A stretch of DNA of 58,015 nt from Candidatus Harrisonbacteria bacterium (GTDB lineage Bacteria; Patescibacteriota; Minisyncoccia; UBA6257; 1-14-0-10-44-23): contig JAHFLG010000012.1 of the NCBI GenBank assembly GCA_023244975.1, forward strand, positions 1 through 58,015. Reading direction: 5' to 3'. The notes beneath the pieces are model-generated. The model had not been told where the DNA came from. It saw only the letters and a list, made by a program, of their open reading frames with translations, and made no database searches. The position numbers and the translations under genes were made by a program. This document shows, one piece after another, positions 8,960-42,454 of this stretch (position 1 is the stretch's first letter; every line of letters begins with the position of its first letter).

Positions 8960-10801
8960 ATGAAATTGAAACGTAGCACTGTTGGCGTTATCCTCATTAT
9001 TTTCATTATTGTATCGGCGATTATTGTTGCCAGCGAGATTCATTTTAGTGGCCGGTTTTATCCGCATAGTATCATTGGCGGAGAAGATGTCAGCGGTAAA
9101 ACATTTGATGAAGTATTTAAGAAACTTGATATGGCTGCAACGCGTATCGAGCATGAAGGGTTTGTAGTGAGGATTGCTTCGAGCACTATTAAGATTCCTT
9201 CATTTAGTCAGGGTCTTACTCCCGATACGGTCGTGGAATATTTTAGTATAGGCGATTGGAAAGGAGTATTGCAGAAAGCATATGACCTTGGCCGACAGGG
9301 AAATATTTTAAGGCGCATGAGCGAGCGCTTGGGTCTATTGTTTTCACCTATGGAAGTAACATTGCCCTATACCCTTCAGGAGAGTGCGCTTAATTCATTG
9401 CTCACTCGTGAAATTGGTGCGGTTGTAGCACGCAGACAGGAGGCGTACATTAAGGCGGTCGGCGCTACGATTGAAATTGTGCCTGAAGTTAACGGCCAAA
9501 GTATTAATCAAGAGGCCATCATCAGTCAGCTGCGTAGTAATTTGGAGACACTCGACACCTCTCCTTCATTCAAGATTTTCGCGACAACTGACCGTGCAGT
9601 TATTACAGCTAAAAAGCTGGAGCTTATAGTAGATTTTGCGCGATCACTCGCAAGCCGTAGCTACGCGATTTTGAAATTTGACGGTTTTTCCTCGTATGTA
9701 TCGGGTCCGATGCTTGCGAGCTGGCTCACATTGAACGATAAGGAGGGTGTATCGCTGACTCTCAATCAGAAAAAGCTTGAAGAGTATGTGCGAGCCAAGG
9801 TTGATCCGTATGTGGATAGTGCCCCACAAAACAGCCGATTTGAAATGCAGGGAGATAGCTTGGTTGAAATTGTCGCCGGTACATCTGGTCAAACGGTTGA
9901 TCTTAGTTCTCTCAATCAGCAGCTGGTTGGGGCGCTCCTTAAGATGTATCTTACGAGTGCTTTTGGCGGTAAAAGTTTTGATGCAATAAACCCTATTATT
10001 CTCACAGTCAATTTAATACCAGAGGATCCAAAAATAACCGAAAAGACGATTGCCGAGTATGGCATTAAAGATCTCGTTGGTACGGTGACAACAAATTTCA
10101 AGGGTAGTACCGCAGATCGGGCCCACAACATCAAAGCTGGCCTTGATCACATCAACGGCTTGCTTATTGCTCCGGGACAGGAGTTTTCAACGGTACGAGC
10201 CATTGGTGAGGTGACCGAAGAAGAGGGTTATGTGAAGGAGTATGTTATCAAGGGTAACGAGAGCATCAAAGAACTCGGCGGCGGCCTTTGTCAGATTTCG
10301 ACAACCTTATTTCGTCTGGCTCTTAATGCCGGCCTGCCGATCACGGAGCGGGTCAATCACAAGTATGTTGTCGGATATTACGGTCCGGGCCTGGACGCGA
10401 CCATCTACGGTCCGCATCCGGATCTGAAATTTGTAAACGACACCAAGGGCTATCTGCTCCTTCAGGGTAGGATAGAAGGAGGGAATTCATTAGTGCTTGA
10501 GTTCTATGGTCAAAAAGACGATCGTAAGGCCGAGGTGACCGTGCCGGTCATTACCAATCGTATTCCGCCGCCGGACGCGAAGTTTATTCCAACGCTTGAT
10601 CTTCGTTTGGGTGTTCAAAAATGCACTGAGCACGCGCGATACGGGCAGACGACTGATGCGACCTCAACCGTCACGTATGCTGATGGGCGACAGCGCGTTC
10701 AGCAGTTTCATAGTGTCTACACTCCTTGGGCGCAAGTCTGTTTGGTTGGAGTCTCACTCACGGCGCCTCTGACTCAGTCTTCAGACGAGGGGGTGCACTG
10801 A
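8960..10801 (+). CDS. VanW-family protein, membrane-anchored
   Basis: C-terminal VanW core (GGGLCQISTTLFRLALNAGLPITERVNH...GLDATIY) and an N-terminal TM helix. Start chosen at MKLKRS, 8 nt after tRNA-Gly. Confidence 0.75.
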   Translation: MKLKRSTVGVILIIFIIVSAIIVASEIHFSGRFYPHSIIGGEDVSGKTFDEVFKKLDMAATRIEHEGFVVRIASSTIKIPSFSQGLTPDTVVEYFSIGDWKGVLQKAYDLGRQGNILRRMSERLGLLFSPMEVTLPYTLQESALNSLLTREIGAVVARRQEAYIKAVGATIEIVPEVNGQSINQEAIISQLRSNLETLDTSPSFKIFATTDRAVITAKKLELIVDFARSLASRSYAILKFDGFSSYVSGPMLASWLTLNDKEGVSLTLNQKKLEEYVRAKVDPYVDSAPQNSRFEMQGDSLVEIVAGTSGQTVDLSSLNQQLVGALLKMYLTSAFGGKSFDAINPIILTVNLIPEDPKITEKTIAEYGIKDLVGTVTTNFKGSTADRAHNIKAGLDHINGLLIAPGQEFSTVRAIGEVTEEEGYVKEYVIKGNESIKELGGGLCQISTTLFRLALNAGLPITERVNHKYVVGYYGPGLDATIYGPHPDLKFVNDTKGYLLLQGRIEGGNSLVLEFYGQKDDRKAEVTVPVITNRIPPPDAKFIPTLDLRLGVQKCTEHARYGQTTDATSTVTYADGRQRVQQFHSVYTPWAQVCLVGVSLTAPLTQSSDEGVH

Positions 10802-10918
10802 GCAGGCCAAGGCTGCAATCCCTGCGGCCACCAGAATGGTTCGTCGGCTTCCGAACCTTCTTTCCGCTCGCGCCGCCGCGCTGCGCGATATGTCCTCGGG
10901 ACAGCAGCCTTGGCCTGC
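10802..10918. repeat. structured GC-rich repeat, family A, copy 1
   Basis: 117 nt. 15-bp closing stem GCAGGCCAAGGCTGC/GCAGCCTTGGCCTGC. The core is shared with 39907-40024 (inverted) and 42339-42454. Confidence 0.8.
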
Positions 10919-10957: not shown

Positions 10958-11030
10958 GCCACCTTAGCTCAGCTGGTAGAGCAATACTTTCGTAAAGTAG
11001 AGGTCCCGAGTTCGACTCTCGGAGGTGGCT
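10958..11030 (+). tRNA. tRNA-Thr (anticodon CGU)
   Basis: Hand-folded cloverleaf: acceptor GCCACCT/AGGTGGC, D-arm GCTC-AGCTGGTA-GAGC, anticodon loop TTCGTAA, T-arm CCGAG-TTCGACT-CTCGG. Confidence 0.85.
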
Positions 11031-11041
11031 CAAAAATATCT

Positions 11042-39041: not shown

Positions 39042-39908
39042 ATGAACGGCTTTGCGCTTATAGGTATTGCGGTGACACTCTGGTCGGTTGGTAGTGGCAT
39101 TATTGCTAAATTATTTACCGTGCCGGCGCTCATGTGGTACCCGGTGGCGGCGGCTATGGGAGCGGCGGTTGTCGTAGTCATTATTCTGATTAAAGAGTCG
39201 CCGCGATCTTTGTGGCCACAGAGCACGGCGGCACGGTGGCTGCTATTGGGAGTAGGTGTGACGGTTCTTATCAATAACGGATTATTTTTTACCGCACTTC
39301 AAATCACCTCGGTTCCGGTCGCTCAACTTACACATTATCTGGCACCTTTATTTTTGGCGGTGATTTTCGCACCCCTGATGCTTGGTGAAAAACCGACTAA
39401 GCGGGAGGTCATTCTGACACTTGTCGGCTTACTGGGACTTAGTATCGTTCTGTGGCCTGACTTACGCGACGCGCGGCTTAGTGTAGGAGCAATGATGGGC
39501 GCAATCTCAGCCGTATTCTTTGCGCTCGGTAACGTGTTTAATCGCAAACTTACCGCCTATGGGGTCAGCGGTCTGCCCGCGGCCGCGTATCAAAATTTTA
39601 TCCCCACCCTCGGCATGGCGCCGTTTATGTTGTGGCAACTAAACCAAGGTGTGCAGTTTACCTCCGGCGATATCTGGGGTGCGGTATATATGGGCGTAAT
39701 GACCATGGGTTTCGGATTTTCGCTGTTTTTATTCGGCCTCCAGCGTCTCAAAAAGGCTAACCATGCCGGCATCATGAGTTATGGCGAGCCAATAGGCGCG
39801 ATTATCCTGGCCGCAATATTTTTACACGAACCAATGACCGCCTACGTGATTGTCGGCGGTATCTTGATTATCGGTTCCGGCGTGGCTTTAGTTTTAGGAA
39901 AAGATTGA
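39042..39908 (+). CDS. EamA/DMT-family transporter
   Basis: About 10 TM helices in two repeated halves, typical of DMT transporters. Confidence 0.65.
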   Translation: MNGFALIGIAVTLWSVGSGIIAKLFTVPALMWYPVAAAMGAAVVVVIILIKESPRSLWPQSTAARWLLLGVGVTVLINNGLFFTALQITSVPVAQLTHYLAPLFLAVIFAPLMLGEKPTKREVILTLVGLLGLSIVLWPDLRDARLSVGAMMGAISAVFFALGNVFNRKLTAYGVSGLPAAAYQNFIPTLGMAPFMLWQLNQGVQFTSGDIWGAVYMGVMTMGFGFSLFLFGLQRLKKANHAGIMSYGEPIGAIILAAIFLHEPMTAYVIVGGILIIGSGVALVLGKD

Positions 39909-40024
39909 GAAACACGGCTGCTGTCCCGAGGGTACATCGCGCAGGCCGGCTGGGCCGAGCGGGAAGAAGGTTCGTCAGCCGACGAACCATTCTGGTACCC
40001 GCAGGGATTGCAGCCGTGTTTCTC
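39907..40024. repeat. structured GC-rich repeat, family A, copy 2 (inverted orientation)
   Basis: Closing stem GAGAAACACGGCTGC/GCAGCCGTGTTTCTC. Its reverse complement aligns with copy 1. Fills the convergent eamA/pyrB gap and overlaps both stop codons. Confidence 0.8.
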
Positions 40025-42338: not shown

Positions 42339-42454
42339 GTAGCAGCAGTGCCAAATCCCTGCGGGCACCAGAATGGTTTTCTTACTGAAAACCTTCTTCT
42401 CGCTCGCGCCGCCGCGCTCCGCGATGTGCCCTCGGGACATGGCACTGCTGCTAC
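42339..42454. repeat. structured GC-rich repeat, family A, copy 3
   Basis: Closing stem GTAGCAGCAGTGCCA/TGGCACTGCTGCTAC. Lies between the pyrD stop and the pyrC start, 10 nt from the pyrC ATG. Confidence 0.8.

Follow-up and report, generated by a model that had tools for sequence, protein, structure and literature searches.

The window, i.e. the whole stretch of 58,015 nucleotides from Candidatus Harrisonbacteria that was analyzed, harbors three copies of a short palindromic repeat that is probably a non-autonomous mobile, or formerly mobile, DNA element recognized through its fold. The repeat is best explained as the local representative of an extensive family of palindromic DNA repeats that occurs in Patescibacteria, mainly in Paceibacteria/Parcubacteria. 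It is inserted DNA that is gained and lost between related genomes; insertions are found in intergenic spacers, without a fixed orientation, and relatives have in-frame insertions within a gene as well. The arms that close the palindrome probably belong to the element and are lineage-specific, and the cores are homogenized by exchange between copies. With its conserved folded center and free ends, the element inverts the design that is customary in transposons.

Copies in the window and in the genome

The three copies consist of the following parts, the arms of copy 2 being given in the minus-strand reading.

10802-10918, plus strand: copy 1, whole element, with the coordinates of the initial annotation
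10802-10816, plus strand: copy 1, 5' arm GCAGGCCAAGGCTGC, perfectly paired with 10904-10918
10817-10903, plus strand: copy 1, core, with AA, P2 (TCCC/GGGA), P3 and a three-way junction with P4 and P5
10904-10918, plus strand: copy 1, 3' arm GCAGCCTTGGCCTGC
39907-40024, minus strand: copy 2, whole element, core reading on the minus strand
39907-39921, minus strand: copy 2, 3' arm GCAGCCGTGTTTCTC
39922-40009, minus strand: copy 2, core, 97% identical to the core of the C71 copy
40010-40024, minus strand: copy 2, 5' arm GAGAAACACGGCTGC
42339-42454, plus strand: copy 3, whole element
42339-42353, plus strand: copy 3, 5' arm GTAGCAGCAGTGCCA, inner GTGCCA in common with the C73 copy
42354-42439, plus strand: copy 3, core, with P3 GGGCAC/GTGCCC and P4 GGTTTTC..GAAAACC
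42440-42454, plus strand: copy 3, 3' arm TGGCACTGCTGCTAC

All three positions and strands agree with the initial annotation, which had also quoted the 15-bp outer arms exactly; each pair (GCAGGCCAAGGCTGC/GCAGCCTTGGCCTGC, GAGAAACACGGCTGC/GCAGCCGTGTTTCTC and GTAGCAGCAGTGCCA/TGGCACTGCTGCTAC) is fully complementary, and the covarying inner helices named there are present (GGGTAC/GTACCC versus GGGCAC/GTGCCC, and GGTTCG/CGAACC versus GGTTTT/AAAACC). Alignment reveals a core of 85 nt common to the three copies, with long invariant blocks and unrelated ends. The hairpins of copy 1 are GGTTCG..CGAACC (P4) and CGCTCGCGCC..GCGCTGCGCG (P5), and copy 2 has TGAC as a variant P4 loop and GGCCCAGCCGGCC as a variant P5. 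With 84% identity to the commonest core, the core of copy 1 is the most diverged of the three, and its third helix is damaged (GGCCAC versus ATGTCC, two mismatches), which looks like the trace of a one-sided conversion. The predicted fold of all three copies is a rod capped by a three-way junction, with minimum free energies of -67 to -72 kcal/mol (z = -7.1 to -10.7 versus dinucleotide shuffles); the opposite strands fold equally well or better (-73 to -80 kcal/mol).

The neighboring genes had been identified correctly as well. Copy 1 is located between the stop codon of a VanW-like gene (10799-10801) and a tRNA-Thr(CGU) gene (10958-11031). Copy 2 fills the 115-nt spacer between the convergent EamA and PyrB genes, its arms overlapping both flanking stop codons, by 2 nt and 1 nt. 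Copy 3, on the plus strand, is antisense to transcription, as it occupies the pyrD-pyrC spacer within an operon of the minus strand; its 3' arm covers the pyrD stop codon (42451-42453). An exact look-up of the PyrB protein led to a single further contig; its spacers have identical lengths, and it offered no DNA for an empty-site comparison.

The window corresponds to one contig (C61) of an assembly of 733 kb in 76 contigs (90% complete), which holds 11 copies, all of them intergenic, and one remnant. Nine close copies were obtained by pattern search, the tenth (C32:316-433) by the first covariance model and the eleventh in a later search. The latter (C53:2333-2454) is much diverged, shows the same architecture with a different P4 and stands back to back with a standard copy on the same contig (2466-2587); its arm GGGCTTCGCC resembles that of the C5 copy. 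The copies of this genome have no coding capacity, and neither a longer or split version nor an autonomous parent IS was found in it. Beyond the window, copies are flanked by an oxidoreductase gene and pheS, by ftsW and murG (the C43 copy), by genes for an epimerase and an HTH protein, by dnaX and a gene for a DUF4015 protein, and by two sugar transferase genes, so that the neighbors are mutually unrelated housekeeping genes. As proposed at the outset, the element thus behaves as a dispersed palindromic repeat of the REP/BIME/MITE kind (multi-copy, intergenic, in both orientations) and differs from a classical MITE by its conserved center and variable ends: core identities of 94-99% between copies in this genome go along with arm identities of 0-73%.

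The arms are fairly uniform in length (12-19 bp) and flawless in eight of the ten close copies. They had been called copy-specific, which is correct in that no arm homology exists between loci, but too strict for the innermost bases, which subsets of copies have in common: the inner GGCTGC of the 5' arm of copy 1, for example, recurs in copy 2. Such matches between copies are confined to the inner 3-8 bp. The description does not extend to other genomes either, where several copies have whole arms in common; in genus g35, one sub-family carries a conserved 17-bp terminal repeat (GGACTTCCGCCATTGCC).

Spread of the family and the level of its structure

BLAST with the core yields almost no matches outside this genome. 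Building covariance models and scanning genomes with them, as the initial annotation had suggested, recovers the family well beyond its source. Of 151 genomes of the order, 19 contain full-length matches to model R1, several in each, and model R2, built from 49 copies, has matches in 37 of 151 genomes of the class and in 8 of 151 genomes sampled across the phylum, six outside the class. These counts are lower bounds, e.g. in genus g35 BLAST detects well over 10 places per genome versus the one to two listed by the models. Named records confirmed by the models are Patescibacteria/Paceibacterota MAGs, including Azambacteria, Colwellbacteria, Liptonbacteria, Wolfebacteria and Harrisonbacteria. 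A pattern scan of all species produced chance matches in GC-rich genomes such as Streptomyces, and model-confirmed matches alone were used. A phage origin was rejected, as all 16 viral pattern matches failed the covariance model. Regarding Rfam 15, only two tRNAs reach the gathering score in the window, and no match to a curated covariance model appears at the element at E <= 5 in 20 loci from 18 genomes. Full-text literature searches retrieved no description of the family.

Across the family, the element is gene-less and 110-170 bp long. Its signature comprises a closing stem that varies, two helices of 4 bp and 5-6 bp separated by a 3x3 internal loop, the junction (A/C)CA-GAAT, the hairpin P4 (loop often TCCAGCG), TTC-TTCNC, the hairpin P5 and CTGCG(C/G)GATGT. 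P5 opens with CGCTCGG and is extended in some relatives by 30-60 nt, followed by ACCAAGC. In this genome, the conserved letters in and around the junction are CCAGAAT, TTCTTC.CGCTCG and CTGCGCGATGT; longer relatives additionally display the P4 loop TCCAGCG and the P5 bulge ACCAAGC.

The variable but complementary stems had been taken as a sign of selection on structure. Compensatory changes do lie far above chance: among 28 relatives, whose alignment was fitted to the model and hence leans towards structure, both sides are changed in 39 of the 43 base pairs, and paired cells amount to 92%, compared with 62% in shuffles and 40-53% with slid partners. Selection on an RNA fold, however, is not supported by the kinds of pairs. 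In about 2,570 cells from three alignments, two of them with common rows, 44 G-U pairs face 59 A-C combinations, unlike in the tRNA stems of the same genome (14 G-U versus 3 A-C in 324 cells from 27 tRNAs; acceptor and T stems were paired by position, and the filter counts G-U as paired, which leans slightly against A-C). Relative to co-directional flanking genes, as judged by crude ORF calls, 19 copies have the same and 17 the opposite orientation. Watson-Crick pairing on both strands and random orientation therefore assign the structure to the DNA palindrome itself instead of to a single transcript.

A functional structured RNA, be it a small RNA, an mRNA-stabilizing or -processing element or an RNA-level terminator, would agree with the very strong covariation in all five helices, with the class-wide conservation of unpaired junction letters, with the terminator-like score of P4 followed by TTCTTC, and with the element's position between iscS and iscU in three genomes of three families. 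It is nevertheless highly improbable: apart from G-U being no commoner than A-C and from the random orientation, which includes opposite orientations at iscS-iscU, a promoter would not fit into the 115-nt spacer between the convergent genes at copy 2, positions are non-syntenic, the distribution is patchy with different sites within one genus, copies occur in frame inside mnmA, and no Rfam family matches. The initial judgment that a riboswitch is unlikely is borne out by the orientation, the lack of a G-U excess, the non-synteny and the Rfam result; riboswitch, small RNA and ribozyme were all rejected on these grounds and on that of the in-frame genic copies. The suggested terminator or insulator module is not supported, since a T-tract is missing after the rod, copies reside within operons (copy 3 inside pyrD-pyrC, the C43 copy between ftsW and murG) and orientations are split 19 to 17; an intrinsic terminator was rejected for the same reasons. 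Conservation of the junction letters throughout the class and recurrence at iscS-iscU would also fit a host function.

Two observations on individual sites may be added. The inner P4 hairpin with the following TTCTTC/TTCTTT (10838-10867 and 42375-42403) gives a weak terminator-like score on the sense strand of the element, and its counterpart in AT-rich relatives is a hairpin plus TTTCTTTT. The spacer between iscS/nifS and iscU/nifU is occupied in loci L200, L201 and L202 (genomes G252, G239 and G167, from three families), once by an inverted pair; orientation to the operon differs among them, and the site may be a hot spot or hold an old insertion.

Insertion, arm origin and exchange between copies

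The positions of the element are not syntenic. For 28 foreign copies, the orthologues of the flanking genes are not found beside any copy in this genome, and genomes of the same genus either have no element or bear diverged copies elsewhere. Closer comparison is offered by genus g35 (G089, G127 and G066, 75-92% DNA identity), in which two loci are polymorphic for presence or absence between G089 and G127/G066. At the 3' end of a tRNA gene, G089 has about 200 nt, including an element that starts 12 nt after the tRNA, versus 8 nt in G127. After another gene, a block of 400 nt in G089, formed by a second palindromic repeat plus the element, is replaced by 8-12 nt in G127 and G066. Two more sites in G066 are without the element, with flanks too diverged for the junctions to be read. 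Regarding target-site duplications, no consistent direct repeat was seen in the flanks of the nine close copies, and in g35 the exact junctions are obscured by additional bases at the empty sites that do not align.

The second palindromic repeat of G089 is about 220 nt long (L025:1241-1466 and L162:1505-1720; ends CACAAAACCTTTTCCGCCAGC / GCTGGCTAA..GGTTTTGTG). In genus g35 it repeatedly adjoins the element, and the empty site lacks both, so that they may be mobile jointly, as a composite. In a further genome (G149, L018:1809-2586), a group I intron (Rfam RF00028, 55.7 bits) is situated about 155 nt from an element copy.

Insertion into a gene is seen in mnmA. In two relatives (G117, locus L016, and locus L211), the MnmA gene contains an in-frame element after ATGHYVRL, with matches to Pfam domains on both sides. 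Excising the element with both arms restores homologous loops of 14-15 residues (LSKSAHRLFQARDKN and LSPLFSLYQAKDKN), which means that both arms are foreign to the gene; the two insertions encode dissimilar peptides. The mnmA gene of the genome studied here (C66, about 1340-1440) also possesses an in-frame palindromic insertion, of about 96 nt with arms CGAACCCT/AGGGTTCG, which is a simple rod lacking the three-way junction and occupies the site used in the two relatives, after ATGHYVRL. The gene codes for an essential tRNA-modification enzyme, in which this position appears to be a hot spot that tolerates palindromes.

These cases show for relatives that the closing arms come with the element and do not derive from a pre-existing hairpin: neither of the two empty sites in g35, with flanks of about 90% identity, has a hairpin, so the arms arrive with the element. 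For the 11 loci of the genome itself, same-genus genomes are too diverged to provide alignable DNA, and a metagenome scan seeded with PyrB, a poor seed, returned only relatives of at most 58% identity; with no empty site for these copies, the origin of their arms is therefore read from relatives. Their perfect pairing is assumed to reflect either recent origin or pairing-dependent mobility.

Two other origins of the arms can be weighed against these data. According to the first, only the core and a few inner stem bases are mobile and land in the apex of existing hairpins, the outer arms being DNA of the locus. The assembly indeed contains 46 perfect hairpins (stem of at least 11 bp, loop of 3-12 nt) versus 2 in a shuffled genome. 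The majority resemble bidirectional terminators (A-tract, GC stem, T-tract), and roughly a dozen are GC-rich, unique and intergenic, as the arms are. The remnant mentioned above (C51:2861-2893), a perfect 13-bp hairpin with the left end of the element (AATCCCTGCGG) at its apex, is such a hairpin. A deletion between two GCGG repeats would yield precisely this arrangement, and the remnant is probably a copy deprived of its core in this way, the alternative being a vacant landing hairpin. Landing in hairpins would also suit a g35 locus of G089, at which one whole element is nested in the core of another, in its exact center, and the restriction of arm matches between copies to the inner 3-8 bp. 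The empty sites without hairpins and the mnmA insertions that bring both arms render it unlikely, however, as do the helix, which continues from the unique arm into the common stem without loop remnants, and the arms, which lack the A/T tracts typical of the terminator hairpins of this genome.

In the second scenario, the new strand would fold back on the stem of the element, switch template at or after insertion and copy a small number of bases from one flank in reverse complement, producing a palindrome that grows outward. Perfection of quasi-palindromes by template switching is an established mutational route in bacteria, templated copying would yield unique, perfect arms free of wobble pairs, as observed, and in G117 the flank of the left arm repeats the opposite arm, forming local mini-hairpins. 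Against this very unlikely route stand the two mnmA insertions, in which neither arm is native coding sequence, the uniform arm length (12-19 bp instead of open-ended) and the uncorrected decay of the arms, which at common g35 loci collect ordinary mismatches.

With arms supplied by the element, the contrast between arms and cores can be traced to exchange. At loci occupied in both G089 and G127, the copies have kept their arms and flanks (about 90% identity), while their P4 or P5 hairpins are unrelated. Within the genome studied here, variants of the P4 loop, P5 and the junction occur in all four combinations, and the P3-P5 part of the C32 copy equals that of copy 3 except for one base next to P3, whereas P2 and the arms are unrelated. 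Copies thus exchange inner hairpins, and cores are therefore nearly identical within a genome. The arms stay outside this exchange because it requires homology on two sides, which is supplied by the conserved junction and not by the arms. At one g35 locus (L164:2395-2546 in G089 versus G127:C54), the P5 loop differs between the two genomes (GAA versus TTT) within an otherwise identical stem, and P4 is wholly replaced; in G127:C54, about 265 nt belonging to a different repeat family are additionally inserted.

Putative mobilizing enzyme and relation to known elements

How the element may be moved is suggested by its design. Either DNA strand can fold to a rod in which the closing stem is followed by helices of 4 bp and 5-6 bp and by a three-way junction with two hairpins. 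A protein acting in trans may recognize the junction as folded in a cruciform or in single-stranded DNA, instead of a terminal sequence. If it is the junction and not the termini that is recognized, the ends of the element would be set by the base of whichever stem closes the core, and the arm sequence would be free as long as it pairs. Presumably only well-paired copies propagate, which would explain the near-universal perfection of arms in this genome. The element itself would be selfish or merely tolerated, with no required host function. In its most specific form, this view holds that a putative enzyme detects the conserved three-way junction of single-stranded DNA in its folded state, with cutting and joining at the foot of whichever stem closes it; it is put forward tentatively, as a possibility that is more doubtful than mobility itself. 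The enzyme could be a Y1 HUH protein of 220-260 aa as encountered in Paceibacteria, or a housekeeping recombinase. If ends are indeed defined by shape and not by sequence, the element would represent a new kind of mobile DNA, and this would account for ever-changing arms, self-nesting, hairpin swaps and in-frame threading into essential genes across the CPR.

A narrower proposal is a REP/REPIN-type element moved in trans by a RAYT-like Y1 (HUH) transposase. HUH enzymes recognize folded single-stranded hairpins, and Y1_Tnp proteins of 220-260 aa are multi-copy in 93 of the 151 class genomes (up to 8-10 per genome of 0.6-1.1 Mb). They are also somewhat commoner in carriers of the element (28 of 37) than in non-carriers (65 of 114; OR 2.3, p = 0.05, uncorrected for relatedness). 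The search for a RAYT-like gene recommended in the initial annotation, however, gave no Y1 (PF01797) match in the 90%-complete assembly, and Y1 is likewise missing from G036, G288 and G162, with 4-7 or more copies of the element each. In the order sample, no Y1-element association was detected (p = 0.42), and with either model, the distance to an element exceeds 1.5 kb for all 35 Y1 genes of the order. Together with the weak co-occurrence, the lack of a GTAG/CGTC tag and a size three to four times that of REPs, this makes a RAYT partner decidedly unlikely. TnpB was not found in this genome and is absent from five carriers, and among about 50 loci no neighboring ORF recurs except iscS/iscU in the three genomes mentioned. 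The Y1 proteins of the class carry the C-terminal two thirds of the Y1_Tnp (IS200/RAYT-like) domain (e.g. G143:C10:21620-21853), and their abundance is unexpectedly high for such small genomes.

Among known repeats, the element works like REP/BIME, MITEs and, above all, Rickettsia palindromic elements, and it departs from each of them in a defining feature. REPs are simple hairpins of 20-40 bp with an unpaired GTAG or CGTC tag, and those of the GTAG type flank RAYT genes (PMC3733652). With REP/BIME/REPIN, the element has in common that it is a short, gene-less palindrome, multi-copy, mostly intergenic near gene ends and present in both orientations, with occasional genic copies, and that such repeats are thought to be selfish or tolerated. 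It differs in being branched, untagged and 115-170 bp long, in conserving the center and not the stem, and in having no linkage to RAYT; an alignment of nine copies contains no conserved column in or just outside the arms that could represent a REP tag.

Classical MITEs retain the terminal inverted repeats of their parent IS in conserved form and generate direct target-site duplications of fixed length (PMC10969869). Like Correia/NEMIS, ERIC and RUP, the element is non-autonomous, of about 100-200 bp, strongly folding, polymorphic for insertion and tolerated in operons. In contrast to them, its termini vary and its interior is conserved, the g35 sub-family with its conserved 17-bp terminal repeat being the exception. 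No parent IS was found, and the flanks of the nine close copies gave no consistent duplication.

Rickettsia palindromic elements are palindromes of about 100-150 bp in a reduced genome that fall into several sub-families and are defined by a conserved encoded peptide (PMC10969869). They resemble the element in occurring in intergenic regions and in frame in housekeeping genes without destroying them (here mnmA in two relatives). The hosts belong to an unrelated phylum, and the element is characterized by a conserved DNA three-way junction, with most copies intergenic.

Recognition by shape, with the stem sequence free if paired, has its counterpart, as an analogy of mechanism only, in the attC sites of integrons and in the attP of the CTX phage. 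The latter is a branched (forked) hairpin of about 150 nt. attC sites have conserved outer R''/R' boxes (RYYYAAC / GTTRRRY) around a variable center and form cassette arrays beside an integrase. Their conserved outer boxes and variable center are the reverse of the present design, whose copies are dispersed singly; neither a cassette array nor a linked recombinase was seen at copies of the element.

The family is of practical and biological relevance. Its repeats are located at several contig ends in these MAGs and thus concern assembly, and they affect annotation by creating spurious ORFs and lengthening real proteins, e.g. MnmA; the covariance models from the present analysis are a direct means to mask and map them. 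For transposon biology, the design points to an enzyme that recognizes DNA shape. The genomes of Patescibacteria rank among the smallest and most streamlined in bacteria, yet about one quarter of the sampled Paceibacteria carry the repeat, often in many copies, so that for the evolution of reduced genomes these repeats represent a source of insertion, deletion and recombination.
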